Shown: piece after piece, positions 4,973 to 62,223 of the stretch
How positions within the stretch are numbered: the first letter of the stretch is position 1
How the letters are laid out: each line of letters begins with the position of its first letter
From: Candidatus Woesearchaeota archaeon
GTDB lineage: Archaea > Nanobdellota > Nanobdellia > SCGC-AAA011-G17 > UBA489
Assembly (NCBI GenBank): GCA_964622835.1
Contig: CAZUSA010000001.1
Location: 159,468 to 223,467, forward strand
Direction: 5' to 3'
DNA: 64,000 nucleotides
The notes under the pieces: generated by a model
The model's input: only the letters and a program-made list of their open reading frames with translations
Databases searched by the model: none
Told to the model about the DNA's origin: nothing
Program-made: the position numbers and the translations under genes

Positions 4973-5755
4973 TTATTGACCAAAAATAGATCGTAACATA
5001 CGTATCGCAAAGGAGTCTCGTCGGATGGTTGAAGTGGAAGTTTGTGGTCGTCCAAGTAATGATGCTGCTAAGTTTTGATAGGCCACCGCAGCAGGAGCGT
5101 TAGGGAAGAGTGATGCGACAGGTTCTCGTTTGCTTAATGCGTGTTTAACATTATGGTCTTCTGGTATGTGTCCTAAAATTGGTTGTTCTAAAAACGAAGC
5201 AACATCAGGTAGAGATACATCTGCTTCATGTCCTGCTCGTGTAACAACTGTTCCAGGAACGCGTTTTCCTAATCGTTCTGCAGTGCGTATTGTTTGTAAT
5301 GCATGGGTCATACTTGGTAAGTCTGGCGTAGTAACGGGTAAGACATCATCGGCTAATGCTAATGCTGCTGTTGTTTCTGGTGTTGTTCCTGAAGGTGTAT
5401 CTAATAAGATAATATCTGCGTTTACTTGATGTAAGTGTTCGCGTAAGACAGGTAAGTCTTTTGCTGCTGTTGATGATAATGATGCAGGAACAATGTTGAC
5501 ACCACTATGATGTTCATAGGTTGCATCAGCTAACGTTGCCGTCCCATCTAAAACATCTGATAAGGTTGTTTCTGTTGTGTGTGCACCAAGATATAATCCT
5601 AATGATGGTGCGTGAACGTCTGCATCAATAACGGTTACTTTTTTTCCCATGCGTGCAAGTGACACACCTAAGTTAAGTGCCGTGGTACTTTTTCCTGAAC
5701 CACCTTTGGCATTTGCAATACTCGCAATAAGAACCATACTGTTTCTACATTTCAC
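4973..5755 (-). CDS. ParA/MinD-family P-loop ATPase
   Basis: Deviant Walker A KGGSGKSTTALNLG and IDAD motif. Probable true start at MVLIAS (5737). Confidence 0.8.
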   Translation of the reverse strand: MKCRNSMVLIASIANAKGGSGKSTTALNLGVSLARMGKKVTVIDADVHAPSLGLYLGAHTTETTLSDVLDGTATLADATYEHHSGVNIVPASLSSTAAKDLPVLREHLHQVNADIILLDTPSGTTPETTAALALADDVLPVTTPDLPSMTHALQTIRTAERLGKRVPGTVVTRAGHEADVSLPDVASFLEQPILGHIPEDHNVKHALSKREPVASLFPNAPAAVAYQNLAASLLGRPQTSTSTIRRDSFAIRMLRSIFGQ

Positions 5756-5903: not shown

Positions 5904-6374
5904 ATGATAAATAAAAGAGGACAAGCTGCTATGGAGTTCTTGATGACCTATGGTTGGGCTCTGCTAGTTGTGCTTGTCGCTATAGGAGCGTTAGCTTTTT
6001 TCGGAGTATTAAACCCCGGACAATTCTTACCTTCGACCTGTACAATTACACCAGGAATTGCGTGTAATGACTTTAAGGTAGCGGAAGGGGGAACACCAAT
6101 AACAGGCACTGTAGATTTACGTTTACAGAATGGTTTTGGTGACAGTTTAACTACAGTCACAGTAGATATTGACATTGGCCAAGATGGAGCCAATGATTGT
6201 CCGCAATATACAAACGCAGCCTGGGCAGATGGTGCAGAATTATCTGTAGCAATGACTGGTTGTACAGTTGGCCCAAGTGGTGGCAAAGCAAAAGCTGATG
6301 TTATTGTTGGTTACACTGGAAGCGGTGGTATTTCACACGTTAAAACAGGCGTATTAGTTACACAAATTGAATAA
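5904..6374 (+). CDS. Archaeal type IV pilin-like protein with class III signal peptide
   Basis: MINKRGQAAMEFLMTYGWALLVVLVAIGALAFF is a prepilin-like N-terminus (basic residues, G/Q, Glu near +5, hydrophobic helix). GGAGG sits 10 nt upstream of ATG 5904. The ORF track starts earlier at 5808. Confidence 0.7.
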   Translation: MINKRGQAAMEFLMTYGWALLVVLVAIGALAFFGVLNPGQFLPSTCTITPGIACNDFKVAEGGTPITGTVDLRLQNGFGDSLTTVTVDIDIGQDGANDCPQYTNAAWADGAELSVAMTGCTVGPSGGKAKADVIVGYTGSGGISHVKTGVLVTQIE

Positions 6375-6467: not shown

Positions 6468-7265
6468 ATGAATCGTAAACCTATTGCTTGTCCTGCATTT
6501 TACCCGAATACGTTTGAAAAATTAGATAGAGCTATTCAAGATGCGTTCAAGTCTAAAACCGGTCCTGGCACGTTACAAGCGAAACGACGTAACAGCACAG
6601 TAGATTTATTCATCGCTCCTTGTGACACTATTGAAAAGACTGGTCCATGCACAGCGTGGGGATATATGGATATTGCTGAAGCGCCTTTTCCAGAAACCTA
6701 TATGATTCTTGGAACAAATAACCAAAGCGATACAAAGTTTTCTACGTATTTATTTGCTGATTGGGAAACACCGTTCGGTCCAGTCAAAGTAAATCAAGAA
6801 AAGGGTAAAGAATTGATGGAAGTCTTTCCTCAAATACTTAATGAACATACGGCTCATGCAAAGGAGCATAGTGTTGAAGTTCAGTTACCGTGGTTACAAT
6901 TTGCGTCACGTGATAAGTTAGATAGTTTAACATTTATACCCTTAGTTATCAATACAACAAGTCTTAAAGAAATACAAAAAGCTGCAGAAGTATTAAGTCC
7001 TTTTTTAGCAGAACATAAAATCCCCTTAATTGTTTCTCAAAACATTGATGATACAGCAACATTGCAATATATTAAATCAGGAGATACAGGTGCGTTACAT
7101 AATTACAAACAACGAAAACAAACAGATCTCAAGGAGATTGCTCCATTATTACTCGTCATGGAAATTGCTAAACTTCAAAAGAAGCATGCAACTATCATTA
7201 ATGAGCAACCGTCAAGAATAAAAAGTAAAGAAAAGACTCATTATGCATGCGTAAAGTTTCAATAG
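6468..7265 (+). CDS. MEMO1-family protein (AmmeMemoRadiSam system protein B-like)
   Basis: N-terminal RKPIACPAFYP (the AGSFYP-type motif) and HSVEVQLPWLQ (HSxExxLPFLQ motif). 265 aa, typical for the family. Confidence 0.65.
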   Translation: MNRKPIACPAFYPNTFEKLDRAIQDAFKSKTGPGTLQAKRRNSTVDLFIAPCDTIEKTGPCTAWGYMDIAEAPFPETYMILGTNNQSDTKFSTYLFADWETPFGPVKVNQEKGKELMEVFPQILNEHTAHAKEHSVEVQLPWLQFASRDKLDSLTFIPLVINTTSLKEIQKAAEVLSPFLAEHKIPLIVSQNIDDTATLQYIKSGDTGALHNYKQRKQTDLKEIAPLLLVMEIAKLQKKHATIINEQPSRIKSKEKTHYACVKFQ

Positions 7266-8581: not shown

Positions 8582-10080
8582 AACGATTAGCAACATTAAT
8601 TAAGAAGAATTTCAGACTCATTTTACGATCGAAGAGTTCTGCTGCCATGGTTATTATTGGACCGCTATTACTTATTATTTTGTTAGGTGCAGCATTTAAC
8701 ACAGCAAGCATTTATGGTATTCGTGTAGGAACATACTCTGAAAACTACAGTCCCTTATCTGAAGCGGTTATTTATGAGTTGAATCAAGAAAGTTTTGCTA
8801 CACAAAAAGTAGACAGTGAAAAATCGTGTATTGATGGTGTACGTAATAGTATCTTCCATGTATGTGCTGTATTCCCAGATAACTTGAAAGTAGCCCAGGG
8901 TGGTGAGATACAATTCTATGTTGATAATACAAAGACGAATATTATTTATTTAATTACAGAAACGATTGCTGCGGAAATTGGGAAAAAATCTGAAGATTTG
9001 TCCTTACAATTAACGAAAGGTGTGGTTGATACATTAGGTGATATTAAGGAAGAGATTGAAGATCGTGAGAGTTTGTTAAATGAAATAAAGACAAAAGGTC
9101 AAGAAAACCAAGTTATTCTGAGTAGTCTCAGTACAAATGTTAATGAGATGAATTTAGATTATCAAAAGAGTGACATTCCTTTAGGCACATTACAAGCACA
9201 AGTAAGTGGAGATGCAGCAAATACGTTCAAGGCTGTTGAAAATAAGATTGATCTTATTATGGCTGATGTTGATAAAGCAGCATCAAAGCAAGCGAGTATT
9301 CTCAAACAAGTGGCAACGTTAAATCAAAACGCTGAAACGAGTGAGTTTGCAACCATCCAAGTAGAGAAGACGTTTACCAATATTAAGAAAGATATTTCTT
9401 CTGTTAAAGAAACGGGTACGGGTAAGATTGTTAATCCTATTAGTTCTTCTATTAATCCTATTACGGCTAAAAAGACGCATTTAAACTTTATTTTTCCAAC
9501 GTTATTGATTATGATTATGATGTTTGTTTCTTTATTATTAACGTCAACGTTAGAAATTCGTGAGCGCACGTCAAAGGTGTATTTTAAGAATTTTATTACG
9601 CCAACCTCTGGTTTCTTATTTACTATAAGTAATTATATAACCAATCTATTAATTGTTGGTTTGCAAGCTGTTGTGTTACTAGGAGCGGCTGCATATTTAT
9701 TTTATGCTAATATTGCTTCAACATTACATATTTTACTGCCTGTGTTATTATTGATTACCTCTATTTTCTTGTTCATGGGTATTTGTTTGGGAAGTATTTT
9801 CAAGAATGAAGAGACAAATACTATTACTGCATTATCGTTAGGGTTTATTATGGTCTTTTTCTCTTCAGCTATTCTTCCTATCGAAACATTACCTGCAATC
9901 ATAAAAAACATTGCTATGTTTAATCCGTTTTACATTGGTGAAACGATATTAAATAAAATTATTTTATTTCAAGCTCCATTAAAAAACGTAATGAAAGAAA
10001 TATTCTTGCTTTCCGGGTACTTTATTGGTGTAGTAATCATAACAGGTATAGTTAAAAAGGCCATGGGAAAGAAAGATTAA
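8578..10080 (+). CDS. ABC-2 type permease with large extracytoplasmic coiled-coil domain
   Basis: N-terminal TM, about 270-aa hydrophilic coiled-coil region, then 5 C-terminal TM helices. Overlaps the ATPase stop (operon). Confidence 0.65.
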   Translation: MKRLATLIKKNFRLILRSKSSAAMVIIGPLLLIILLGAAFNTASIYGIRVGTYSENYSPLSEAVIYELNQESFATQKVDSEKSCIDGVRNSIFHVCAVFPDNLKVAQGGEIQFYVDNTKTNIIYLITETIAAEIGKKSEDLSLQLTKGVVDTLGDIKEEIEDRESLLNEIKTKGQENQVILSSLSTNVNEMNLDYQKSDIPLGTLQAQVSGDAANTFKAVENKIDLIMADVDKAASKQASILKQVATLNQNAETSEFATIQVEKTFTNIKKDISSVKETGTGKIVNPISSSINPITAKKTHLNFIFPTLLIMIMMFVSLLLTSTLEIRERTSKVYFKNFITPTSGFLFTISNYITNLLIVGLQAVVLLGAAAYLFYANIASTLHILLPVLLLITSIFLFMGICLGSIFKNEETNTITALSLGFIMVFFSSAILPIETLPAIIKNIAMFNPFYIGETILNKIILFQAPLKNVMKEIFLLSGYFIGVVIITGIVKKAMGKKD

Positions 10081-10081
10081 C

Positions 10082-11425
10082 GTGAAACATACACAGATTT
10101 GTACAACAGGCGGCTATAATGAGGTTGGCCGTAATATGACCTCAATTAATATTGGTGGTGAAACAGTTATTTGTGATATTGGTATAAATGTTCAAAAATT
10201 AGTTGAGTACCAACAGAAATCAACAAATCAGCCTGTATATACACGAGCAATCATGGATAAGATTGAGGCTATACCTAATTTAAACAAGTTACAGTCATGG
10301 TTACCAACAGTTAAGGGTATTGCTATTTCTCATTGTCATTTGGATCATATTGGTGGTATCAAGTATCTTGCTCCTGAAATTAAGGCTCCTGTTATTGCTT
10401 CTCCCTATACGATGGAAGTGATTCGTGGTGATATGCGTTCTGATGATATTAGTATTCCTAATAAGATGAAGACGGTTAATCCTGATGGAACGATCCAATT
10501 ATCTAAGAAGTTGAAGTTAGAGTACATTAGTATTCCTCATTCTACGCCTGAATGTGCGTTGATGGCTATTCATTCGCCGAAGGGTGTGTACTTGTATGCT
10601 ACTGATTGGAAGTTTGATAATACACCGGTGATTGGTAAAAAGCCTAATTATAAACGTCTTAAAGAGTTAGCAAATAAAGGTGTTAAGGCATTAGTTATTG
10701 ATTCATTATATTCACAAAGCGAGGGTAAAACACCTTCTGAAATGATTGCACGTGAGTTATTACGTGATGCTATGACCGGTGTTGATAACAGTAAGGCTGC
10801 TATTTTTACAACGTGTTTTGGTTCTCATATTGCACGATTAAAGAGTATTATTGAGTTTAGTAAGAAAATTAATAGAAAGGTTGTTGTGTTAGGAAGAAGT
10901 TTTGGTAGATATGTTGGTGCTGCAGAAAATACAAAGATTACCAAGTTAACAAATCAAGCTGAATTTTATACATATCGTAATGAAATTAAAAGAAAAATTA
11001 CTGAGATTGAAAAGAAAGGTCCACATAAGTATGTTGTTGTTTGTACTGGTGGCCAAGGTGAACCAAATTCTGTTCTTTCTCGTATTATGAATAGTGAGTA
11101 TAAGTTTAAGTTTTATCCTGAAGATGAAATTATTTTTTCTAATAAGTTAATTCCTGTCCAACCAAATATCCGTAATAGGGAATATATGGAGAAAAAATTG
11201 AAAGAGATGGGTGCACGTATTTTCACGGACATTCATGTTTCTGGCCACTGTTCTCGCGAGGATATTAGAGAAATGATTAATTTAACCAACCCTGAAAATA
11301 TCATTCCTTGCCATGGTAATGAGAAATTAATGAAGCCAGGGTATGATCTTGCTGAGGATATGGGCTATAAAAAAGATCGTGATATTCACTTGATGAGTAA
11401 TGGTGAAAAGATTATTATCGAGTAG
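10082..11425 (+). CDS. RNase J-like beta-CASP metallo-beta-lactamase ribonuclease
   Basis: HCHLDHIGG motif (HxHxDH), beta-CASP region, C-terminal HVSGHCSRED. GTG start at 10082 per the ORF track. Confidence 0.7.
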   Translation: MKHTQICTTGGYNEVGRNMTSINIGGETVICDIGINVQKLVEYQQKSTNQPVYTRAIMDKIEAIPNLNKLQSWLPTVKGIAISHCHLDHIGGIKYLAPEIKAPVIASPYTMEVIRGDMRSDDISIPNKMKTVNPDGTIQLSKKLKLEYISIPHSTPECALMAIHSPKGVYLYATDWKFDNTPVIGKKPNYKRLKELANKGVKALVIDSLYSQSEGKTPSEMIARELLRDAMTGVDNSKAAIFTTCFGSHIARLKSIIEFSKKINRKVVVLGRSFGRYVGAAENTKITKLTNQAEFYTYRNEIKRKITEIEKKGPHKYVVVCTGGQGEPNSVLSRIMNSEYKFKFYPEDEIIFSNKLIPVQPNIRNREYMEKKLKEMGARIFTDIHVSGHCSREDIREMINLTNPENIIPCHGNEKLMKPGYDLAEDMGYKKDRDIHLMSNGEKIIIE

Positions 11426-11520
11426 TTCCTTCTTAAAGATACTTCTTCAATCAGATAAATGTATATAAAATAAGCCTGCCAAACCTCTTCACCAAGTGAA
11501 ATATCTTGTAGGGTTTATTC

Positions 11521-12792
11521 ATGATAGAAGATCAAAAGTGTCGGTTTGCTCATTTAGCTGATTGCCATATAGGCGGATGGCGGGAAGAGAAATTAAAGGT
11601 TCTTTCCATTAAAGCTTTTGAAGAAACGGCTAAGAAGATCATTGCAGAAAAGGTTGATTTTGTTATTATTGCTGGTGATTTATTCAATACGTCCATCCCT
11701 TCTGTTGATGCATTAAAACAAGTTACTACGTCACTACGTGAAATTAAAGAAGCAAATATTCCTGTGTATATTGTTCCAGGGAGTCATGATTTTTCTCCTT
11801 CTGGTAAAACAATGTTAGATGTGTTAGAAAATGCAGGGTTATGTAAAAATGTTCATAAGTTTGATGAAGAAAAGAAAGAATTACACATCACCTATCACAC
11901 GTTACCTAACGGCGAACGTATTGCATTAACAGGTATGTGTGGTCTTGCTGGTGGTTTAGAAAAAATACAGTATGAAACAATTACAAATAGAAGAGAGATT
12001 GAAGCTATTACTGATTTCAAAATCTTTGTATTCCATACATTATTAACAGAATTAAAACCGTCAAAGGATTGGGAACATGTTCCGTCAGAGTCTATGATGT
12101 TGTTACCAGTTGGATTTAATTATTATCCCGGTGGCCATCCTCATTTTGTTTCACAAAAAACAACAGTCAACCATCCATTAGTTGCATATCCTGGTCCGTT
12201 ATTTCCTAATAATTTTAAGGAATTAGAAGAGTTACGTCAGGGTGGTTTTTACATTGCTACTGTAAAGAAAGATAACCAGATTACCTTAGATCATATTCCT
12301 GTTCAATTAAAAGAGATACTTCCGTTAACGATTGATGCGAATGATAAAACTGCTGGTACCGTCGAAGAAGAAGTTCGTGAATTGCTTACACGTGTTGATA
12401 TAACTGATAAGATTGTAACACTAAGAATAGCAGGAACGTTAAGTAGTGGTAAACCAGCCGAAATAGGTCTTAAAGCACTGTTAGAAGAACACACAGAAGC
12501 ATATCATATTCTCAAGAATACAGCAAAGCTCAAGGCAAAAGAGTTTTCAGAAATTAACAAGGCTTCAGGTAGTATTGATGAAGTTGAAGAAACAATTATT
12601 AAAGAGCATGTTGGTCAATTAGAGATTCCAGATTTACAATTGAATGAAAATCAAGAGTTGTTAACAAATCAATTAATGACAACATTAAATAAAGAAAAGA
12701 TTGAAGGTGAAAAGAACATTGATTTTGAAACAAGAATTATTCAAGATATGATTAAATTATTTAATGTGCAAGAGGTGTACAATGCGTATTAA
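11521..12792 (+). CDS. mre11: Mre11 double-strand-break repair nuclease
   Basis: Phosphoesterase motifs FAHLADCHIGGW, IIAGDLFN, GSHD. Confidence 0.85.
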   Translation: MIEDQKCRFAHLADCHIGGWREEKLKVLSIKAFEETAKKIIAEKVDFVIIAGDLFNTSIPSVDALKQVTTSLREIKEANIPVYIVPGSHDFSPSGKTMLDVLENAGLCKNVHKFDEEKKELHITYHTLPNGERIALTGMCGLAGGLEKIQYETITNRREIEAITDFKIFVFHTLLTELKPSKDWEHVPSESMMLLPVGFNYYPGGHPHFVSQKTTVNHPLVAYPGPLFPNNFKELEELRQGGFYIATVKKDNQITLDHIPVQLKEILPLTIDANDKTAGTVEEEVRELLTRVDITDKIVTLRIAGTLSSGKPAEIGLKALLEEHTEAYHILKNTAKLKAKEFSEINKASGSIDEVEETIIKEHVGQLEIPDLQLNENQELLTNQLMTTLNKEKIEGEKNIDFETRIIQDMIKLFNVQEVYNAY

Positions 12793-14848
12793 GAACATTA
12801 AATTACATAATATTCGCTCATATAAAACAGAAGAAGTTTCTTTTGAAGAAGGTTCTACATTATTATCTGGTAATATTGGTTCAGGTAAATCAACTATCCT
12901 CTTAGCTTTAGATTTTGTTTTGTTTGGTATTAGTAGAGATTTACCTGGAAGTGCATTGTTACGTAAAGGAGAAACAGAAGGAAGTGTTGAATTGCATTGT
13001 GTTATCAATGATAATGAGATTATTATTAAACGGGGATTAAAACGTACACCTACATCTGTCGGTCAAGAGACTGGTTTTATTATTAAGAATGATGAAAAGA
13101 AAGAACTTACCGCTATGGAATTAAAGCAAGAAGTGTTAACGTTATTGAATTATCCTCAAGAATTATTAACGAAGTCTAAATCTATGGTATACCATTATAC
13201 TGTCTACTCACCACAAGAGCGCATGAAGGATATTCTCCTAAGCAAGCGTGAAGAGCGTTTAGAGATCTTACGGCGTGTGTTTGGGATTGACAAGTACAAA
13301 CGTGTACAGAATAATACTGATATTTTTCTTACAGCATTAAAGCAAAAGTCTAAGGAAATTGCTGCGAGTATTGCTGATTTGGAACAAAAGAAAGAAGCAT
13401 TAGCTGAAAATAAAGAAAAGGAACAAGAAACAAAAACATTTCTTACATCGCTTGAACCTAAAATACTCACGTTACAAAACAAGATTGCAGAAAAGAAGAA
13501 GTTTATTGACGAACAGGAAAAACAACAACAAGTACACCAACAGAAGAAACATGAAAGAGAAAAATTACTCTTAGGTATTACCCATAAAAAAAGTGAGATT
13601 GTACGATTGCAAGAAGAAGAAACAAGAATAAAGAAAGAAATTGTTGATATAACACTATCTTTAGAAAAATTACCACTTGCTGATCCATCATTACAAGAAA
13701 GAATTACTATTTTAGATACTGAAATACAACAAGGCGAAAGTCAAGTAACAGCTATTGAAAGAAAAGTTATTGAGTTTACAACAGTAAAGAAAAGTAAAGA
13801 AACCGTATGTAATGATATTAATGCATTAGATGTTTGTCCAACGTGTAAACAAACGGTCGATGCAGATCATAAGAAACATATTACAAGTAATGAGTCTAAA
13901 GAGATTGAAAAGGTTGATCGTGAATTACAGGCATTACAGCGTGATCAAGAGTATCAACGACAAACACTTCTTGGGAAGAAAGAGGAACGAAAAAAGAAAC
14001 AAGAACAATTAAACGCACAACAAGTAGTTCAGATAAAGGATCAAGAAAAAAAGCAAAAGGAACTACAGGTTCAAAGTATCATTAAACAGAAAGGAGAAGC
14101 TGAACAGAGCCTATTAGGCGATAATCAAAGGATTAGCCAAGTAGAACAGGAATTACAACGTTTTCCTGAAAGTACAACTGAACTACAAGGATACAAGCAA
14201 GAACGCGATGTTATAACACAAGAATTAAAGGAAGTTGAATTACAACGTGCAGGTAAAGAAGCTGAATGTAAAGGGTTTGCTTCTATGATTCTCAGTTTAG
14301 AAGAAGAAATCACAAGAAAAAAGGTTGGGAAAGAAAACATTGCAAAATTATTACAGTTACGTGAGTGGTTAGAAAAACAATTCATGAGTATGATGGCCTT
14401 AATGGAAAAGAATTTATTGTTACGCGTTCATGGCGAGTTAGAGGAATTAATTAAGAAGTGGTTTGGTATGTTGGTTGATGAAGAAACAATGAAGATTAGA
14501 TTAGATGATGAGTTCACACCAATCATTGAACAGAATGAACATGAGATTGAATATGCTCATCTTTCTGGTGGCGAAAAAACAGCGGCTGCATTGTCATATC
14601 GGCTTGCATTGAATCAAGTGATTAACACATTAATGTCTGGTATTAACACCCGTAATATTTTAATGTTAGATGAACCAACAGACGGTTTTTCACAAGAACA
14701 GTTAGAACGTATGCGTAATATTTTAGAAGAGTTAAATACGAAACAAACGATTATTGTTTCTCATGATCCTAAGGTTGAAAGTTTTGTTGATCGTGTTGTT
14801 CGTTTAGAAAAAAAGGAACATCAGACGGTTGTTACTAAAACAATTTAA
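12782..14848 (+). CDS. rad50: Rad50 SMC-like ATPase
   Basis: Walker A GNIGSGKSTILLALDF. Long coiled coil with CPTCKQ zinc hook. Signature LSGGEKTAAALSYRLAL. D-loop MLDEPTDG. Start MRIKNIKLHNIRSY at 12782 overlaps the mre11 stop. Confidence 0.85.
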   Translation: MRIKNIKLHNIRSYKTEEVSFEEGSTLLSGNIGSGKSTILLALDFVLFGISRDLPGSALLRKGETEGSVELHCVINDNEIIIKRGLKRTPTSVGQETGFIIKNDEKKELTAMELKQEVLTLLNYPQELLTKSKSMVYHYTVYSPQERMKDILLSKREERLEILRRVFGIDKYKRVQNNTDIFLTALKQKSKEIAASIADLEQKKEALAENKEKEQETKTFLTSLEPKILTLQNKIAEKKKFIDEQEKQQQVHQQKKHEREKLLLGITHKKSEIVRLQEEETRIKKEIVDITLSLEKLPLADPSLQERITILDTEIQQGESQVTAIERKVIEFTTVKKSKETVCNDINALDVCPTCKQTVDADHKKHITSNESKEIEKVDRELQALQRDQEYQRQTLLGKKEERKKKQEQLNAQQVVQIKDQEKKQKELQVQSIIKQKGEAEQSLLGDNQRISQVEQELQRFPESTTELQGYKQERDVITQELKEVELQRAGKEAECKGFASMILSLEEEITRKKVGKENIAKLLQLREWLEKQFMSMMALMEKNLLLRVHGELEELIKKWFGMLVDEETMKIRLDDEFTPIIEQNEHEIEYAHLSGGEKTAAALSYRLALNQVINTLMSGINTRNILMLDEPTDGFSQEQLERMRNILEELNTKQTIIVSHDPKVESFVDRVVRLEKKEHQTVVTKTI

Positions 14849-16671
14849 TATTTTGCGTAGTCTGAGATCATTACTTCATCAATAATCCCATGGAAATAGC
14901 CACTAGCACCACCATTTGATCCTATTTGGAAGTTACTTGAAGCAAAGTCAAGAGTACCATCTCCTGTTGTTATAATCACAGGAGCACTACTAGGAACCAT
15001 GTTAACAAAACAGTTAAGGGTTTTTGTTGTACCATCATATTGTACAGCAACATGAGTCCAGGTATCATAAGGAACAACAGAACATCCAACATTTAATGCA
15101 GCATTATCAATATTAAGGGCAGCAAGCAACGTATGTGTTCCCGTACCAGAGTTGTATACTGTTCTAAATTGGTTAAGTGAACCTTTACTTGCCCAAAAAG
15201 AACCAACAGGTTCGCTGGTAAGATATAACCATGCTTCAACAGTTACTGAATCGGTTATAGTTGGATATGTTCCAGCTACAACAGTATCATCGACACCATC
15301 AAAGTATAATCCACCACCATATGCACCATCAATCCAGTATGGTTCTTTAATTGCTTGTTGTTGATCATAAAGATATTCCATTTGTTTAGCACTAAGGGGA
15401 CTATCATAAATAGCTACTTCATCCAGGTTGCCAAAGGTACCAGTCCAGGCCCCCACATCGTTAAATGCTCCGATTTGTGTATTAAGTCCGGACCAAGGAG
15501 CACTCATATCTGGTGTAAATATATCTGTGGGTTTTCCATCCACATAAAATTGACCAACACCATTTTTAATAGTAACACCAGCATGATGCCATCCACCATC
15601 AAAATAATTAGTAGGATCAGTATCATAGAAACTAACACCAAGACTATCAACAAAACGAAGTTTTGCAGTCTGAGTAATAAGAAGTCCATAATGGTTATTA
15701 TTAGTTTTACGTGCAAAGATATATCCACCACCCCAACTAGGATTTGCAAGAACTTTTGTCCATGCAGTAAGAGTAAAATCATCAACAAAATTTCCTGCAG
15801 TCTGCCCTATATTTACTGTATCACTTCTATCAGTAAAATCAAGATTATTACTTCCATCTGTATCCCCATCAAAATACAGTCCCCCTCCAGAGATACCACT
15901 GGACCAATCAGGACAACGCACTAGATCAGGACCTCCCGGACAAATGGATCCGAGAAAACCAAGATCTCCATTATACCCATTGCCACTACTGTCTGTTGCT
16001 GTGTCACCACTTCCTTCATCAAAATGATATACTACTTGAGCAGAATCAAAGTTTTGTAGTGTTCCAGGCGCAGATCCAAGACTATCACTGAGTGTTGTTC
16101 CACTAGCATCATCAAATTTGTATAAGGCGACGGTTGTTCCGGTTGGTATGTAACCATCACCATCACCTGGTGCAAAGCCATTACCGTCATCACTGCCGCC
16201 ACCAAAGCTTTGGCTGGTACCTCCAGCAACGATGGCGCTTAAACTGAATGCTTTGGTGTGTTCAATACTGCTATCTATTGTTTTGTAGGCAAAGGTTGGT
16301 GCGTCTTCAACAAAGTCTCCTTCGGTAAAGACCCCTTCACATCCGGTTACTGTAAATAATTTTTTTTGTCCATTTTTTAAACTGAGTGATGCTGATTGCA
16401 CACTACATGCAGGGTGGGAAAAGTAAAAGGATATGAGATCATCACCAAGTCCGTTTAAGACAGCAATGGTTATGGATCCTTCATCAGCAACAAAATCTAC
16501 ACAGGCAAATCCAGGTCCCATCAAACACGTTTCAGTTACAAAAAGATTATCACCAAAGCCAAAATAGAAACTTAAAGACGCAATAGCTAAAATAACAACG
16601 AGTAACGCCCACCCATAGGTCATCAAAAATTCCATGGCAGCTTGCCCTTTATTATGTATAGATGGGGCCAT
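14845..16671 (-). CDS. Pilin-like N-terminus fused to LamG/concanavalin-like lectin domains (surface adhesin candidate), paralog 1
   Basis: Class III signal KGQAAMEFLMTYGWALLVVILAIASL. LamG-like motifs (LYFDGDTDGS, GGLYFDGVDDTV). The ORF track extends to 16689 and overlaps the upstream paralog. Confidence 0.7.
   Translation of the reverse strand: MAPSIHNKGQAAMEFLMTYGWALLVVILAIASLSFYFGFGDNLFVTETCLMGPGFACVDFVADEGSITIAVLNGLGDDLISFYFSHPACSVQSASLSLKNGQKKLFTVTGCEGVFTEGDFVEDAPTFAYKTIDSSIEHTKAFSLSAIVAGGTSQSFGGGSDDGNGFAPGDGDGYIPTGTTVALYKFDDASGTTLSDSLGSAPGTLQNFDSAQVVYHFDEGSGDTATDSSGNGYNGDLGFLGSICPGGPDLVRCPDWSSGISGGGLYFDGDTDGSNNLDFTDRSDTVNIGQTAGNFVDDFTLTAWTKVLANPSWGGGYIFARKTNNNHYGLLITQTAKLRFVDSLGVSFYDTDPTNYFDGGWHHAGVTIKNGVGQFYVDGKPTDIFTPDMSAPWSGLNTQIGAFNDVGAWTGTFGNLDEVAIYDSPLSAKQMEYLYDQQQAIKEPYWIDGAYGGGLYFDGVDDTVVAGTYPTITDSVTVEAWLYLTSEPVGSFWASKGSLNQFRTVYNSGTGTHTLLAALNIDNAALNVGCSVVPYDTWTHVAVQYDGTTKTLNCFVNMVPSSAPVIITTGDGTLDFASSNFQIGSNGGASGYFHGIIDEVMISDYAKY
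16045..16647. repeat. 603-bp direct repeat, copy A (identical to 17861-18463)
   Basis: Codes the identical 201-aa N-terminal segment (GQAAMEF...GTLQNFD) of both pilin-LamG paralogs. The identical antisense ORFs in the track (16032-16229 and 17743-18045) confirm DNA identity. Confidence 0.85.
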
Positions 16672-18505
16672 CTGAAATACGCACCTCATCTATAATTCCT
16701 TTAAAGAATTGACCACTACCTGTCGATCCAAGGTACATATTGGTACCAGGTTGGAAATTTAATGTACCATTGTAAGGACATGTTTTGACAAGTTGTCCAT
16801 TCAGATACCCACTAATTCCAGATCCATTAAATTGTCCAACAACCTGCTGCCATTGATCTGGCGTTACTGCACCACCACCACCAAAGTTACAGTCAACTGT
16901 TTTAGTAGCTGTTGCATTTGCAATATTATAAGCAACATGGAAATTACCACCAAAAATACGCATTTCATTACCACCTTTTTTTAGGAAAAATTGGTTGTAA
17001 GTTGTTAAAGGATAGACCCATGCTTCTGTTGTTACATAGTCGCCAACAACAAAGTTATCTGCAATGGTAACAGTATCATCAACACCATCAAAGTGTAATC
17101 CACCACTATACGCACCATTAATCCAATATGGTTCATCGAGTGCTTGTTGCTGTTCAAAGAGGTACTCCATTTGGGCTGTTGAAAGAGGTGTGTCATAGAT
17201 GACAAATTCGTCCATGTTTCCGTAGGTACCTTGCCAACCATTCCCTCCATTCCATGCACCGATTTGTGAGATCCATCCATGCCCACCATTAAACATTGCA
17301 GGACTAAATGATGCACCACTAGGTTGACCATCAATATATATTTGTGAGCCAGTAACGCCACTACCGTTAATGACAACACCAATGTGATGCCAGTTACCAT
17401 CATAAAAGTTGAAGGGATCTGCCCAGTAAGAAAATAAAGAAACACCATCGGTGTCGATGAAGCGTGCTCGTGGAGGTAAACCATCATCAAGGTATAATTG
17501 ATAATGCATTTCATATTTTCTTCGGCCAAAGACCGTATGCCCAGAACCATAAGGATTATCAGAAAGTTTTATCCATGATGAAAGAGTAAATTTATCATTA
17601 CTAGAAAAGTCTGCAGTGCTAGCACCGATATCAACAAAATCACCCCTGTCAGTAAAATCGGAAGTACTAGCATCAGTATCACCATCAAAGTATAATCCAC
17701 CACCAGAGATACCACTAGACCACTCAGGACAACGAGTTATGTCTACCCCTGCAGGACAAACAGATTCTGTCGCCCCAAGGTCACCATTATATCCATTGCC
17801 ACTACTATCTGCGGTTGCATCACCATTACCTTCATCAAAATGGTACAGTGCATAAGAAGGATCAAAGTTTTGTAGTGTTCCAGGCGCAGATCCAAGACTA
17901 TCACTGAGTGTTGTTCCACTAGCATCATCAAATTTGTATAAGGCGACGGTTGTTCCGGTTGGTATGTAACCATCACCATCACCTGGTGCAAAGCCATTAC
18001 CGTCATCACTGCCGCCACCAAAGCTTTGGCTGGTACCTCCAGCAACGATGGCGCTTAAACTGAATGCTTTGGTGTGTTCAATACTGCTATCTATTGTTTT
18101 GTAGGCAAAGGTTGGTGCGTCTTCAACAAAGTCTCCTTCGGTAAAGACCCCTTCACATCCGGTTACTGTAAATAATTTTTTTTGTCCATTTTTTAAACTG
18201 AGTGATGCTGATTGCACACTACATGCAGGGTGGGAAAAGTAAAAGGATATGAGATCATCACCAAGTCCGTTTAAGACAGCAATGGTTATGGATCCTTCAT
18301 CAGCAACAAAATCTACACAGGCAAATCCAGGTCCCATCAAACACGTTTCAGTTACAAAAAGATTATCACCAAAGCCAAAATAGAAACTTAAAGACGCAAT
18401 AGCTAAAATAACAACGAGTAACGCCCACCCATAGGTCATCAAAAATTCCATGGCAGCTTGCCCTCTGGAAGATAATATAGAACGCTGTTTAAGACCACCT
18501 CTCAT
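16652..18505 (-). CDS. Pilin-like N-terminus fused to LamG/concanavalin-like lectin domains, paralog 2
   Basis: SSRGQAAMEFLMTYGWALLVVILAIASL. The N-terminal 201 aa after the signal are identical to paralog 1. The C-terminal LamG-like region has diverged (GGLHFDGVDDTV). Confidence 0.7.
   Translation of the reverse strand: MRGGLKQRSILSSRGQAAMEFLMTYGWALLVVILAIASLSFYFGFGDNLFVTETCLMGPGFACVDFVADEGSITIAVLNGLGDDLISFYFSHPACSVQSASLSLKNGQKKLFTVTGCEGVFTEGDFVEDAPTFAYKTIDSSIEHTKAFSLSAIVAGGTSQSFGGGSDDGNGFAPGDGDGYIPTGTTVALYKFDDASGTTLSDSLGSAPGTLQNFDPSYALYHFDEGNGDATADSSGNGYNGDLGATESVCPAGVDITRCPEWSSGISGGGLYFDGDTDASTSDFTDRGDFVDIGASTADFSSNDKFTLSSWIKLSDNPYGSGHTVFGRRKYEMHYQLYLDDGLPPRARFIDTDGVSLFSYWADPFNFYDGNWHHIGVVINGSGVTGSQIYIDGQPSGASFSPAMFNGGHGWISQIGAWNGGNGWQGTYGNMDEFVIYDTPLSTAQMEYLFEQQQALDEPYWINGAYSGGLHFDGVDDTVTIADNFVVGDYVTTEAWVYPLTTYNQFFLKKGGNEMRIFGGNFHVAYNIANATATKTVDCNFGGGGAVTPDQWQQVVGQFNGSGISGYLNGQLVKTCPYNGTLNFQPGTNMYLGSTGSGQFFKGIIDEVRISDGPIYT
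17861..18463. repeat. 603-bp direct repeat, copy B
   Basis: See copy A. Spacing 1816 bp. Confidence 0.85.
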
Positions 18506-18634
18506 AGAAAAATACCAAGATGAGTGACTATTTAAAATTATTTATAAAGGAATGAGAAGGAAAAAATAAACCTTTAAAAATAAGGGGGAAAGGTTATAAA
18601 TTTCAGTAAGAATAATGACGTTGAGGAAGTAATA

Positions 18635-20059
18635 ATGAAGTATATAGTATGGATAATGTTGTTGAGTGTTTTACTTACAACAGTAGTGTCTGCCGAAAAT
18701 GAAGTAACTATTGATGTCCTGGAAGGCGCAGAAGAAGCTGAAGCAGGAAGCAAGGCTATTTACGAAGTGTCTCTGACTAATTTACAGCCCGATCGTGATA
18801 TTTATCGTATCAGTTATAATGAGTTGTCCGTATATCCCTTTTCTGATTTTGCCCGAAGTATTATGACGGAACCGTCTCAATTAAAGTTAGATCCTGAAGA
18901 AACAGGGACGATGATCGTAACGATTAAGGTGTTAGAAAACGCGCTTGAAGATAAGAGTTATGAAATGCCGTTAACAGTAACGTCATTAACAAACGAAAAT
19001 ATTGCTGTTGAATTTACGCTTAAAACCTATGTGGTTGCTGCTGAAGATGTTATTTTAATTTTTCCAGAGATTCCCGATACAGTTATTCCTGGTGAAGATC
19101 AAGAAATAAAGGTACGATTAAAAAATAGGGGTAACATTGCTTTAGAAAATTATGAAATTTTAATTTCTAGTGATTTACCTCAGTTGTATAAGAATTTTAT
19201 TACAGATTTTGGTCCTGGTGAAGAAATTATTGAAACAGTTATATTAAAGACGGATAAGAATACGCATGCGGGTGATTACGTAGTAAATATACATGCGTAC
19301 GACAGTGATAGTAAAACACGTGGTTCTTACTCTTCTGCGTTTACGATTGAGTCATTTGATAATATTCGTGAAAAGAAGGATAAGGATTTAGGATTTTTTT
19401 CAAAGACAACAACGATTACAAAGACGAATGAAGGTAATATTCAAAATGAATTAATGGTTGAAGCAAAGGTTAATTTTTTGGCGCGTATGTTTACAAATAC
19501 AGAACCGCAAGCACCTGTATCAAAGGGTAAATACATCTGGACGGTTGATTTAGCTCCTGGTGAGAGCACGGTTGTGAAGTACACGTCTAATTATCGTCCT
19601 ATTTTTTATGGTCTTATTATTGTTGCATTGGCCGTATGGTTGATGACGCATTTGATTGATCGTTCTGTTATCATTAGAAAGCGATTGTATCGTATTAAGA
19701 AAACTGCTGATGGATTATCTGAATTAAAAGTATTAATTCATGTTCGTAATGGTAAGACGGAAGATATTACTGATGTAAGAATTAGTGATGTGTTACCCAA
19801 TACGATGCAGCCATTGGATGAGTTTGGAACAATGAGACCAACAAAAGTGCAGCAAGGAACCAAGGGTAAACGATTTGTGTGGGATATACCTCATTTAGCA
19901 CCGCATGAAGAACGTATCTTTTCATATAAAGTAAAAACACGATTGAAGTTAATTGGTGATGCGCGGTTACCTCCTTCGATTGTCCAGTATCAGACAAAAA
20001 AGGGTAAACATTTTACGGAACGTTCTGCAAGTTTGGCGTTAGAACATAAACAACAATAA
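18635..20059 (+). CDS. Hypothetical cell-surface protein
   Basis: 474 aa. Signal peptide, Ig/CARDB-like beta-rich ectodomain, internal TM helix near aa 325-345, about 130-aa C-terminal region. No recognisable enzyme motif. Confidence 0.5.
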   Translation: MKYIVWIMLLSVLLTTVVSAENEVTIDVLEGAEEAEAGSKAIYEVSLTNLQPDRDIYRISYNELSVYPFSDFARSIMTEPSQLKLDPEETGTMIVTIKVLENALEDKSYEMPLTVTSLTNENIAVEFTLKTYVVAAEDVILIFPEIPDTVIPGEDQEIKVRLKNRGNIALENYEILISSDLPQLYKNFITDFGPGEEIIETVILKTDKNTHAGDYVVNIHAYDSDSKTRGSYSSAFTIESFDNIREKKDKDLGFFSKTTTITKTNEGNIQNELMVEAKVNFLARMFTNTEPQAPVSKGKYIWTVDLAPGESTVVKYTSNYRPIFYGLIIVALAVWLMTHLIDRSVIIRKRLYRIKKTADGLSELKVLIHVRNGKTEDITDVRISDVLPNTMQPLDEFGTMRPTKVQQGTKGKRFVWDIPHLAPHEERIFSYKVKTRLKLIGDARLPPSIVQYQTKKGKHFTERSASLALEHKQQ

Positions 20060-20099: not shown

Positions 20100-20225
20100 C
20101 CCACTCTAGCTCAATGGTAGAGCGCACGGCTGTAGAAGATCCATGTGACGTTTGTCGCTGCGGCAATGTATGAACAATGGTCAGCCGTAACCGTGAGGTT
20201 CCAGGTTCAAGTCCCGGGGGTGGGA
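20100..20225 (+). tRNA. tRNA-Tyr (GTA) with 54-nt intron at the canonical 37/38 position (about 20136-20189)
   Basis: Hand-folded. Acceptor CCCACTC/GGGTGGG with the archaeal Tyr C1:G72 pair. D-arm GCTC-AATGGTA-GAGC. Anticodon stem CACGG/CCGTG, loop CTGTAGA after intron removal. T-arm CCAGG-TTCAAGT-CCCGG (one A-C mismatch). Confidence 0.7.
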
Positions 20226-40459: not shown

Positions 40460-41182
40460 TTGAGAAAAGACATATATGTCTCAAAGAGATTATATGATAT
40501 GGATTTTTCAATACGAAATAAACAAAATGTAGAGAGTAGGTGGAGAAAGGTTCATGAAAAAGAAAGAGCATACATTAGAGATAATAAAGAAAAGACAAAG
40601 CATTTTAGGGCAAGAATATGTGGATTTTTAGCAGGAGATGGGAATCTCCTTATTGCAGGAAAAAACAACAAACACCATAACACAGTACGATTTTTTCCAG
40701 ACCATCATTCACTAATAAAACCATATATCGAGGCTACATTAAAGGTCTACAATAAAAAACCAAAAATAATAAAGAAGAAAAATTATTATTGTTTAAATAT
40801 TGATTCAAAACCAATGGTTGAGGATATTTTATCTACAACAACGTTAGGAACCAGCACATGGAGTATTCCAAAAAGTTTGAAAAGTAATAATGAAAAAATT
40901 GAGTGGTTACGAGCGTTCTTTGATGCTGAAGCCTATGTTCATCAAAAATATATCAGAGTTCAATCAGTGAATGGAGAGGGATTAAAAGAAGTAAAAGAGC
41001 TATTAGGAGACTTGAACATATATTCAAAGATTTACGAATATATGCCTAAACAAAAAAATCATAAAAAAGTCTATATGCTAACAATAATAAGAAAAAAGGA
41101 TAAGTTACATTATAAGTCCCTCATAGGATTTAACCATACAACAAAACTTAAAAAGCTAAATTTTACACTTCAAACAAGATAA
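40460..41182 (+). CDS. Free-standing double-motif LAGLIDADG homing endonuclease
   Basis: 240 aa. Motif 1 ICGFLAGDGNLLIA. Motif 2 LRAFFDAEAYVHQ. Lys-rich. Stop is 4 nt before the tRNA at 41187. Confidence 0.75.
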   Translation: MRKDIYVSKRLYDMDFSIRNKQNVESRWRKVHEKERAYIRDNKEKTKHFRARICGFLAGDGNLLIAGKNNKHHNTVRFFPDHHSLIKPYIEATLKVYNKKPKIIKKKNYYCLNIDSKPMVEDILSTTTLGTSTWSIPKSLKSNNEKIEWLRAFFDAEAYVHQKYIRVQSVNGEGLKEVKELLGDLNIYSKIYEYMPKQKNHKKVYMLTIIRKKDKLHYKSLIGFNHTTKLKKLNFTLQTR

Positions 41183-61493: not shown

Positions 61494-62223
61494 GTGATTT
61501 CAAAGAACAATGCAACAGCAGAATTAGTGGGTTTAAGCTTCGGAGATGGTAGTTTAACGTATAGAAAGAATACGAAAAAATTACGATTCCAATTAAGAGG
61601 TGATGCAACTGAAGAAAGAAAACATTATACGGAGTTTATCATCCCGTTATTTAATAAAGAAATTATGAGACCTTTATTTTATAGAAATGTTGGAACAGTA
61701 TATGATAAAAAAAGGAAATTGTTTTGGCATTTCTGTAGAAAGTAAAAAAATTAATAATTTGCACCACACTCTTGGAATTCCAGTTGGTAAGAAAAATAAT
61801 CTAAAAATTCCTTTATGGATAAAAAATTCTGAAGAATACAAAAAATCCTTTTTGAGAGGGTTATTTGACACTGATGGGTGTATCTATTTTTTGAAAAACA
61901 CTTCTGAAAAAAATCCAAGAATTCACAAAAGAATTTGTCTTACAATAACACTCTGCTCAAAAAATATGATAAATAAAATTTCAGAAATTTTAAAGGGTTT
62001 AAATATCGGACATGATATCAAAGAATATCAACCAAAAAATAAAAATTGGCAAAAATCATATACTATACGGCTTTCTGGAGGAAAAAGAGTCATCCAGTGG
62101 TTTAATTGTATTAGTTCAAATAACCCTAAACATAAAACAAAATTTGAAGTATGGAAAAAACAAGGATTTTGCAGTCCCAAAACAACATTAAAACAAAGAG
62201 AAAGAATTTTAAAAAGGAATTAA
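61494..62223 (+). pseudogene. LAGLIDADG homing endonuclease gene interrupted by a frameshift at an A7 run (61707-61713)
   Basis: Frame-0 ORF 61494-61745 carries motif 1 (LVGLSFGDGSLTY). Frame-1 ORF 61687-62223 carries motif 2 (LRGLFDTDGCIYF). Removing one A joins ...VYDKK to GNCFGISVESKK in one about 243-aa ORF. Confidence 0.6.

Follow-up and report, generated by a model that had tools for sequence, protein, structure and literature searches.

The question raised by this locus of a Woesearchaeota-type DPANN archaeon is what kind of proteins are encoded by two adjacent minus-strand genes, g2 and g1, which start with a perfectly identical segment and continue into clearly diverged regions, and how the identity and the divergence came to stand side by side. 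The window, i.e., the whole stretch of 64,000 nucleotides that was analysed, contains no N, and an archaeal SRP RNA and split RNA polymerase genes occur in the context of the locus. With a probability of about 0.68, g1 and g2 represent an archaeal modular type IV pilin pair derived from an ancient duplication, the stalk segment of which was recently homogenised by gene conversion.

Organization of the gene pair and of the encoded proteins

The features of the locus are collected in Table 1. An alternative start of g1 at ATG 16689 gives a protein of 614 aa (ORF 14845-16689, minus strand). The counterpart of g1 in the sister assembly L001 (P0002) is called in the 608-aa form, and the sister ortholog of g2 (P0001) is 99% identical. 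The final 20 nt of g2, read in a different frame, encode the g1 leader MAPSIHNK, and the GAGGTG motif lying within g2 suggests a translational coupling and a co-transcription of the two genes, which are apparently transcribed together. The TATA-box-like TTTATAAATA upstream of g2 is a candidate archaeal promoter of the g2-g1 unit.

Table 1. Coordinates of the features of the g2-g1 locus and of the small pilin of the window.
Feature	Position	Strand	Basis or remark
g2, upstream gene, 617 aa modular pilin (class III signal, pilin module, linker, two LamG domains)	16652..18505	(-)	ORF
g2 leader peptide MRGGLKQRSILSSRG	18461..18505	(-)	predicted prepilin-peptidase site after G15; cleavage predicted
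g2 pilin module, aa 16-158 (predicted alpha-1 helix and Ig-like beta-sandwich, four conserved Cys)	18032..18460	(-)	AF2 model, Foldseek, alignment
g2 Gly/Asp-rich linker, about aa 159-183, FGGGSDDGNGFAPGDGDGYIPTG	17957..18031	(-)	sequence; low pLDDT
g2 first LamG domain, roughly aa 266-455	about 17141-17710 (approximate)	(-)	Pfam, other of two stretches
g2 second LamG domain, aa 473-613	16667..17089	(-)	Pfam best stretch
g1, downstream gene, same architecture as g2	14845..16671	(-)	608 aa from ATG 16671
g1 leader peptide MAPSIHNKG, overlapping the 3' end and stop codon (16652-16654) of g2	16645..16671	(-)	sequence; cleavage predicted
g1 pilin module, same sequence as that of g2	16216..16644	(-)	exact-run comparison
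g1 linker, identical to that of g2	16141-16215	(-)	sequence
g1 first LamG domain, aa 289-436 (614-aa numbering)	15382..15825	(-)	Pfam best stretch
g1 second LamG domain, roughly aa 470-610	about 14860-15282 (approximate)	(-)	Pfam, other of two stretches
Copy A of the 604-bp repeat, in g1	16045..16648	(-)	exact-run comparison
Copy B of the 604-bp repeat, in g2	17861..18464	(-)	exact-run comparison
Shine-Dalgarno-like GAGGTG, inside g2, 10 nt upstream of g1 ATG 16671	16682..16687	(-)	sequence
TATA-box-like TTTATAAATA, about 34-43 nt upstream of g2 ATG	18539..18548	(-)	sequence
Stand-alone pilin, 156 aa, same module family	5904..6374	(+)	alignment A1; HMM E 3e-50

Both proteins begin with a short charged leader and a K/R-G-Q motif followed by about 25 hydrophobic residues. 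The predicted cleavage motifs, SSRG/QAAMEFLMTYGWALLVVILAIASLSFYFGF in g2 and HNKG/QAAMEF in g1, belong to a motif that is invariant across 90 relatives, and the predicted mature N-terminus of g2, QAAMEFLMTYGWALLVV, exhibits a Glu at position +5. Residues Q16, E20, F21, M23-Y25, W27 and A28 are invariant among these 90 family members, stand-alone pilins with which the module aligns. With respect to the Cys residues, C55, C63 and C95 are invariant and C117 occurs in at least 90% of the members, all four being invariant in a 10-sequence alignment (A1). The AF2 model of aa 1-165 of g2 (mean pLDDT 84.6) consists of a helix (15-42) and nine strands, and the archaeal type IV pili 8fk7, 6nav, 8q30 and 8tib are among its best matches in the PDB according to Foldseek.

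The pilin-module HMM recognizes g2 with an E of 2e-73. No Pfam or NCBIfam profile for pilins or class III signals (e.g., Class_IIIsignal) matched g1, g2 or the 90 relatives at E<=1; the same libraries gave noise only, and no pilin family, for the N-terminal module, and a PDB sequence search with the pilin-module profile gave no match. The bacterial N_methyl-type motif of Pfam did not match g1 or g2 at E<=1 either; the Glu at +5 is conserved nevertheless.

The Gly/Asp-rich linker following the pilin module is disordered in the full-length AF2 model, where residues 160-183 have a pLDDT below 50. Beyond the linker, two stretches per protein match Laminin_G_3 (PF13385), with E values of 1.4e-31 for g1 and 4.6e-35 for g2 (110.2 and 121.4 bits vs a gathering cut-off of 27.6), and g2 also matches Laminin_G_2 with 23.4 bits. 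The fusion of a class III signal to LamG regions, anticipated for both genes by the original prediction, is thus borne out by the motif, the pilin module and the LamG profile. The LamG region is modelled with low confidence in the full-length AF2 model, the quality of which is low beyond the pilin module (pLDDT 65) and which yields only weak ConA-like and pilin matches with Foldseek; a PDB sequence search with the LamG half revealed no close solved structure.

The exact repeat of the window and its counterparts in two other assemblies

Self-comparison of the window gives a longest exact run of 604 bp at offset 1816, coding for 201 identical residues (G15-D215 in g2). The identical segment of the adjacent genes is therefore real, and the 603 bp initially announced are exact in identity and one base short at the 5' end. 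In g2, the run starts at the third base of codon R(-2), covers the pilin module, the linker and 32 more residues, and ends at D215; its start is exactly the point at which the homology between the copies begins. Past the repeat, identity steps abruptly from 100% to about 72% (ungapped 70-76% across the next 200 bp) and then falls to background because indels break the register, the aligned remainder of the two proteins being 49% identical. When copies of this pilin module are compared within loci of other genomes (about 90 pairs), the exact runs that come next in length reach 171, 161 and 104 bp. The first two are 5' segments preceding diverged heads in tandem stand-alone pilin pairs of two genomes, and provide an independent precedent for gene conversion. 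The 604-bp identity is far beyond chance.

Over 21,349 bp, the sister assembly L001 is 99.63% identical to the window; of the 79 mismatches, 70 fall in the two 604-bp copies (Fisher p 9e-78), vs 9 in about 20,100 bases outside the repeat. Both paralogs are present in L001 with the same diverged tails, the LamG tails of both genes showing 0-1 differences between assemblies. The two N-terminal copies of L001 differ from each other at 66 of 604 sites, mostly synonymous (dN/dS 0.07), and their longest common exact stretch is 104 bp. At 62 of these 66 sites the window allele equals one of the two L001 copies, and at 4 it matches neither; only 11 switches occur across the 62 sites, fewer than in any of 100,000 random orderings. 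The repeat of the window is a run-structured mosaic of the two L001 copies.

A third assembly, the independently assembled JGI contig L163, was located by exact look-up of g1, the corresponding look-up of g2 giving no contig. It possesses the same mosaic allele in g1, with 2 differences from the window, and terminates inside the repeat after reaching 106 bp of the upstream copy. Over the 106 bp reached, its two copies are identical up to repeat position ~542 and different beyond. Its g2 copy is window-like at positions 451-541, where it has two alleles of the window, a novel one at 502 and the copy-1-type one at 517; it is L001-copy-2-like at 543-580, and L163 disagrees with the window at 9 sites of the 3' end of the g2 copy. 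Identity across the last ~60 bp of the upstream copy occurs in the assembly of the window only. A scan of metagenome contigs returned distant relatives only (27-52% identity) and no additional strains of the locus, and a word-indexed search with the N-terminal module did not return close paralogs.

Intragenomic gene conversion that recently overwrote the stalk-coding 5' segment probably accounts for the identity, and the three near-identical assemblies would then correspond to three states, namely 66 of 604 differences (L001), partial identity (L163) and identity up to 604 bp (the window). A minimal history would start with a patchy conversion of g1 by g2; the mosaic g1 would then have converted g2 back, once or twice, with tracts ending at different points. 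Part of the homogenisation has been seen twice, since the g2 copy of L163 shares the 502 and 517 alleles of the window, and the data support a recent and stepwise conversion of the pilin stalk.

It is rather unlikely that the perfect identity results from an assembly or consensus artefact, in which similar but non-identical real copies, like those of L001 or L163, were collapsed into a single mosaic written twice. Such a collapse would agree with an allele that mixes the two L001 copies, with the concentration of nearly all window-L001 differences in the repeat, with the 9 sites at which L163 departs from the window, and with the restriction of the identity over the last ~60 bp to one assembly. 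Moreover, short-read assemblers have difficulty in spanning an exact repeat of 604 bp, yet the window lies within a 293-kb contig, which could mean long reads and polishing. Against this explanation, the independent L163 contig carries the same mosaic in g1 and, in g2, the 502 and 517 alleles of the window, and its break inside the repeat is what one would expect from a genuine long exact repeat in that sample. L001 copies sharing no more than 104 exact bp would not be merged by a de Bruijn assembler at large k, so that a collapse of the de Bruijn graph is unlikely; the mosaic is organized in long runs, unlike per-site noise, and four sites match neither L001 copy. A long-read consensus artefact may nevertheless be behind the final perfect identity.

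Proposed pilus subunits with lectin heads

The pilin module retrieves 3062 cluster representatives with phmmer at E<=1e-3, many of them of 140-170 aa. In related loci, most members are stand-alone pilins of about 145 aa, often in tandem pairs, and most matches of the pilin-module HMM terminate within 0-5 aa of the module end. In related genomes, the module is repeatedly fused to LamG, to a polysaccharide-lyase domain or to fn3-like modules, often in tandem. Some members are labelled 'UPF0333 family' by JGI, and relatives go by 'LamG domain-containing protein' alone in public records, proteins of this kind being annotated only under that name or as hypothetical. The pilin-LamG fusion, singled out as notable beforehand, is real without being unique to this locus: it recurs in related genomes, and modular pilins that bear lectins are well known from bacteria (PMC8179133, PMC9934059).

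The closest analogues are indeed bacterial modular type IV pilins, especially PilC from Streptococcus sanguinis, in which a pilin module is linked to a concanavalin-A-like lectin module that binds glycans, the protein being a subunit of a tip complex (PMC9934059, PMC8179133). Like PilC, g1 and g2 start with a class III signal and have a ConA-like lectin module grafted onto a pilin module by way of a flexible linker; the common design is one carrier module with differing functional heads. As in bacterial modular pilins, the pilin module and the linker are followed by a functional module that has no specific tie to pilus biology. Unlike PilC, they are archaeal, combine a predicted helix with an Ig-like sandwich devoid of any bacterial N_methyl (IPR012902-type) or Pfam pilin match, possess two tandem LamG domains, and form two adjacent paralogs with carrier modules probably homogenised by gene conversion. 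They are an archaeal variant of this bacterial kind of protein.

A prepilin peptidase would cut both proteins after K/R-G and the hydrophobic alpha-1 helix would place them into a type IV pilus consisting mainly of small pilins such as 5904-6374. This small pilin is a candidate filament partner, its first 18 mature residues being those of g1 and g2 (alignment A1), an identity that would satisfy the requirement for co-polymerisation. The flexible linker would expose the LamG pair, most probably at the pilus tip, and the pair would attach to host cells or surfaces by binding glycans, g1 and g2 equipping the same stalk with binding heads of two kinds (49% identity).

Alternatively, g1 and g2 would not enter pili at all, the module being merely a bindosome-like surface anchor for LamG, or the LamG heads would be enzymatic instead of adhesive. 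Among about 50 ORFs scanned in the window, none encodes a pilus ATPase, a platform protein or a prepilin peptidase; class III signals also occur on non-filament binding proteins among the PibD substrates of Sulfolobus (PMC4858521), and one tandem relative has a Polysacc_lyase domain in place of LamG. This alternative seems improbable to us: the N-terminal module is homologous over its whole length to stand-alone pilins, whose conserved helix, Glu+5 and Cys residues it shares, and its first 18 mature residues are those of the neighbouring small pilin, while the Laminin_G_3 matches of g1 and g2 contain no catalytic signature.

Two groups of archaeal LamG proteins deserve comparison. TafC, the laminin-G-domain tip subunit of the Tat-fimbriae of Haloarcula hispanica (PMC11821415), resembles g1 and g2 in being archaeal and in associating an N-terminal subunit-like domain with a C-terminal laminin-G/ConA-like domain, which has been proposed as a filament-tip adhesin (PMC11821415), as suggested here for g1 and g2. 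However, TafC is Tat-exported and assembled by donor-strand exchange, whereas a class III signal and a hydrophobic alpha-1 helix characterise g1 and g2. Membership in the TafC family was rejected, the NCBIfam TafC model scoring 17.3 and 22 bits over the LamG regions vs a cut-off of 410 bits, and a twin-arginine (RR) motif being absent from both leaders. The LamG/concanavalin surface proteins of DPANN archaea (arCOG07813) are likewise LamG-domain proteins of small-genome archaea, and have been proposed to function in cell-cell adhesion (PMC7414124, PMC9563170). The passages of these reports devoted to them describe adhesion or Sec-exported proteins, with no link to pilins (PMC7414124, PMC9563170), and one genome study of DPANN archaea reports that its genomes had no annotated pilins (PMC9563170). 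In contrast, the LamG domains of g1 and g2 sit on a recognizable pilin module.

Probable concerted evolution of the common stalk

The locus had been compared to those devoted to surface-antigen or adhesin variation, and a pilE/pilS type of recombination creating new surface variants would indeed involve surface-exposed pilin genes, recombining copies and a strain polymorphism confined to the locus. We regard this possibility as very improbable, and it was rejected, because the homogenised part is the conserved pilin module and linker, not the variable head. The converted tract is under strong purifying selection (dN/dS 0.07), the exchanged sites are mostly synonymous, and the LamG heads are identical between strains, without exchange. 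In addition, both genes are full-length with their own starts, no silent or promoterless cassettes were seen at the locus, and the window holds only three modules of this pilin family, the third being 56% identical in DNA. The gene pair appears to be a case of concerted evolution of a common stalk, the reverse of pilE/pilS-type variation.

The original prediction placed a very recent duplication beside ongoing gene conversion. Such a tandem duplication, whether confined to the 5' part or spanning the gene as a whole, would explain neighbouring genes with an exact run starting where homology starts, but hardly deserves consideration and was rejected on the dS of the LamG halves (about 1.15, with a dN of 0.455 and 49% protein identity, so that the duplication is old), as well as on the abrupt identity boundary, on L001 having both paralogs with the same tails and N-terminal copies 66 mostly synonymous sites apart, and on the tandem fusion arrays present in distant relatives too; the conversion half of that prediction is sustained by the mosaic of the two L001 copies and by L163.

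The PilA1-6 pilins of Haloferax volcanii have identical hydrophobic domains. These archaeal type IV pilin paralogs (PMC4858521) share with g1 and g2 a conserved or identical N-terminal hydrophobic domain and variable globular parts. In g1 and g2, however, the identity covers the whole pilin module and the linker (201 aa) and holds for the DNA as well, the variable parts consisting of large lectin modules. Gene conversion is efficient in archaea (PMC11276520), and concerted evolution between tandem prokaryotic paralogs has been described (PMC6053082, PMC2568036). As in the known cases, the tract is sharply bounded and paralogs of the same genome are closer to each other than cross-strain orthologs are. 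Unlike them, the tract ends differ among three near-identical assemblies and the conversion tract coincides with a functional module boundary.

The locus offers, from an uncultured archaeon, a clean natural case of gene conversion bounded by a module, and a warning that near-identical paralog segments in metagenome-assembled genomes call for read-level checks. The pilin module defines a large family (over 3000 sequence clusters) without a Pfam model. The lifestyle assumed for DPANN archaea is one of attachment to other cells, and the interpretation of g1 and g2 as pilin-lectin fusions joins two separate observations, pili and LamG adhesins, into one attachment device. Tentatively, as a possibility with somewhat more against it than for it, DPANN archaea may use pilin arrays with interchangeable heads, in which frequent conversion between tandem genes would keep the stalk identical so that each head fits the same filament. 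If so, the three assemblies would form a natural time series of conversion in one population, and differing lectin or carbohydrate-active heads on one stalk would set the specificity for hosts or substrates.

Organization of the fused pilins and of their pilin module

The proteins encoded by the two adjacent minus-strand genes, g2 (upstream) and g1 (downstream), are composed of a class III signal, a pilin module, a flexible linker and two LamG domains, and are therefore modular pilins. Their N-terminus comprises a short charged leader, a K/R-G pair followed by QAAMEFLMTYGWALLVV... with a Glu at +5, and a globular part of ~115 residues containing four conserved cysteines. The fusion of a pilin to a LamG region, as read in the original prediction, is borne out by the Laminin_G_3 domain (Pfam), which occurs twice in each protein with scores of 110 and 121 bits for a cut-off of 27.6, and by the homology of the N-terminal module to stand-alone pilins. 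The module has a very large family of homologs, with 3062 cluster representatives reaching E≤1e-3, of which 471 also reach E≤1e-10, and those found in related loci are mostly stand-alone proteins that end 0-5 residues past the module and frequently form tandem pairs. No model covering the module was found in Pfam, NCBIfam or the PDB sequences; some members bear the JGI label "UPF0333 family". Fusions of the module are recurrent in related genomes, as detailed in the table.

Features of the window and fusions of the pilin module in loci of related genomes
Locus	Coordinates	Strand	Description
Window	4973-5755	-	MinD/ParA-type ATPase gene, adjoins the stand-alone pilin
Window	5904-6374	+	Stand-alone pilin, 156 aa, same module family, MINKRG/QAAMEFLMTYGWALLVV..., divergent from the MinD/ParA-type ATPase gene
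Window	14845-16689	-	g1, ORF, 614 aa; 608 aa if started at ATG 16671
Window	16652-18505	-	g2, ORF, 617 aa
Window	18635-20059	+	ORF, 474 aa, divergent from g2; same position in sister assembly L001
Window	35313-38111	-	DUF4215 Cys-rich repeat protein, 932 aa, also myxo_disulf_rpt match; class-III-like N-terminus (...RRAQAATEQMVLTGIILVLL...)
Window	40460-41182	+	ORF with LAGLIDADG_3 (homing-endonuclease-like) domain match
Window	54544-57372	-	DUF4215 Cys-rich repeat protein, 942 aa (domain matches)
Window	61687-62223	+	ORF with LAGLIDADG_3 (homing-endonuclease-like) domain match
L002 (GCA_018655015.1)	8736-13578		Three tandem fusions: Polysacc_lyase (PF14099); LamG twice; unknown ~250-aa domain plus LamG
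L003			Tandem fusion pair, LamG on both
L082, L084			One LamG fusion each
L083			Tandem fusion pair: LamG on one; the other with a 476-aa tail without Pfam match
L161	6019-9935		Three tandem fusions: two with fn3-like, purple-acid-phosphatase-N or CarboxypepD_reg-like domains, not LamG; third without Pfam match

The shared segment and its probable exchange between the two genes

The exact repeat predicted in the tandem paralogs is present, and comparison with the offset fixed at 1816 bp gives a longest exact run of 604 bp (16045-16648 in g1, identical to 17861-18464 in g2) which codes for 201 identical residues. The identity is real in the sequence and far above chance, since among ~90 within-locus pairs of the pilin module from other genomes the longest exact runs reach only 171, 161 and 104 bp. 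The repeat starts with base three of the K/R codon that precedes the Gly-Gln of the signal-peptide motif, and the homology between the genes starts exactly there, because the final 20 nt of g2, read in a different frame, encode the g1 leader (MAPSIHNK); g1 is called in its 608-aa form in L001. Beyond repeat position 604, numbered 5' to 3' along the genes, the ungapped identity falls to 70-76% across 200 bp before the register is lost to indels, and the proteins share 49% identity over the aligned remainder. At position 17843, 18 bp past the repeat end in g2, the window alone has C, with T in L001, in the third assembly L163 and in the g1 copy.

The duplication itself is old, as indicated by a dS of ~1.15 and a dN of 0.455 between g1 and g2 outside the shared segment, values which refute the very recent duplication originally proposed. 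The alternative of gene conversion is supported by the comparison of three near-identical genomes. The sister assembly L001 (ENA ERZ27249630), a 46.5-kb contig syntenic with the window, is 99.63% identical to it over 21,349 bp, and 70 of the 79 mismatches fall within the 604-bp copies (Fisher p 9e-78); the g1 and g2 tails show 0-1 differing sites between the two assemblies. The few differences outside the repeat are mostly clustered, with 4 in 17 bp (14197-14213, rad50) and 2 in 7 bp (6773-6779), which suggests recombination between strains or, in the assemblies, alternative haplotype paths.

In L001 the copies are unconverted: copy 1 and copy 2 differ at 66 of 604 sites, chiefly third codon positions (dS 0.49, dN 0.034, dN/dS 0.07). 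Over those 66 sites the allele of the window equals copy 2 at 41, copy 1 at 21 and neither at 4, and the resulting mosaic is arranged in long runs with 11 switches over 62 sites, fewer than in all 100,000 random orderings. L163 (JGI 3300024344), an independently assembled contig of 3584 bp covering window positions 18028-14445, carries this mosaic, 2 differences apart, in its g1 copy. The g2 copy, of which the contig covers a part, resembles the window over repeat positions 451-541, including a novel allele at 502, and L001 copy 2 over positions 543-580. The copies are thus identical up to ~542 in the visible part of L163, and up to 604 in the window.

Moreover, g1 pairs with its ortholog in the tails and with its paralog in the module, an incongruence which is a classical signature of gene conversion. 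A real conversion between the copies is favored, with a probability of roughly three in four. In the simplest history, two steps would suffice: before the window and L163 lineages split, g2 sequence would have replaced patches of g1, and the mosaic g1 would then have converted g2 back, with tract ends that differ between the two lineages. One awkward point for conversion is that it demands at least 2-3 events while the flanks diverged by ~0.04%, when homogenisation had stayed incomplete over the long preceding interval (dS 0.49). Tandem stand-alone pilins of two other Woesearchaeota assemblies offer an independent precedent, at a smaller scale, for this pattern of homogenisation: exact 5' segments of 171 bp (L095, 5386-6429) and 161 bp (L102, 6019-7017), which span the signal and the alpha-1 helix and stretch from the start codon as far as the first disulfide cysteine, precede diverged heads.

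The main rival, considered rather unlikely, is that the perfect identity is an artefact of a repeat-graph long-read consensus or of polishing with multi-mapped reads, which would have written one mosaic twice. It draws on the fact that the identity of g2 across positions 543-604 is seen only in the window, but has to face the independent presence of the mosaic allele in L163, whose g2 copy combines the novel allele at 502 with a copy-1-type allele at 517 and whose contig end falls inside the repeat, together with the non-random run structure of the mosaic. A merging by large-k de Bruijn graphs would also not be expected, as the longest exact stretch common to the L001 copies is 104 bases. As for the suggested locus of antigenic or adhesin variation, it is not supported: a pilE/pilS-type system was rejected, the exchanged part being the conserved and not the variable one, and no silent cassettes having been seen.

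Genomic surroundings and predicted display of the lectin head

The genomic context of g1 and g2 is archaeal. Genes for a Mre11-type phosphoesterase and Rad50 adjoin g1. The 474-aa protein encoded on the other side has a signal sequence at its N-terminus and a hydrophobic stretch resembling a membrane span, and gives weak DUF11 and UpsA-like matches; beyond it occur tRNAs and genes for RpoH and for split RpoB and RpoA. An archaeal SRP RNA was found in the window, and the homologs that carry an organism name belong to MAGs of Candidatus Woesearchaeota or Nanoarchaeota. A 126-nt Rfam tRNA match (20100-20225, plus strand, 48.9 bits) without an ARAGORN call probably represents an archaeal tRNA gene with an intron. 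The two DUF4215 proteins may be further surface proteins. No pilus machinery was found among the window ORFs scanned; the 156-aa pilin, whose first 18 mature residues are identical in g1 and g2, is a candidate filament partner.

A TATA-like box upstream of g2 (18539-18548) and a GAGGTG motif located within g2, 10 nt upstream of the g1 ATG, suggest that both genes are carried by a single transcript. A class III signal peptidase would cut after the Gly, and the subunit would enter, by its alpha-1 helix, a type IV pilus that consists chiefly of small pilins. The S. sanguinis pilins PilB and PilC (PMC8179133, PMC9934059) serve as the analogy for the head: the LamG pair would be displayed on its flexible linker, probably at the pilus tip because a bulky head of ~45 kDa seems ill-suited to the shaft, and would bind glycans of a host cell or surface. 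The identical stalk would allow both heads to enter the same filament.

Relationship to other modular pilins and LamG-tipped fimbriae

The closest functional analogues are the bacterial modular type IV pilins, notably PilC of S. sanguinis, in which a ConA-like lectin module serves to bind glycans (PMC9934059). A survey of modular pilins was based on the bacterial IPR012902 motif (PMC8179133); since g1 and g2 show no N_methyl-type match in Pfam, they are analogues rather than members of that group. Among archaeal filaments, the tip subunit of the Haloarcula Tat-fimbriae, TafC, bears LamG, but its export is by the Tat pathway and its assembly by donor-strand exchange (PMC11821415), and the NCBIfam TafC model scores only 17-22 bits on g1 and g2 for a cut-off of 410. 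The available portions of two reports already propose an adhesin role for LamG proteins of DPANN archaea, and do not connect pilins to these adhesins (PMC7414124, PMC9563170). Both the concerted evolution of paralogs in tandem and efficient gene conversion in archaea are well documented (PMC6053082, PMC2568036, PMC11276520). The g1/g2 proteins are an archaeal variant of the modular type IV pilin, not categorically new, and their locus offers a well-resolved example of concerted evolution that stops at a module boundary, useful to the attachment biology of DPANN archaea and to annotation.
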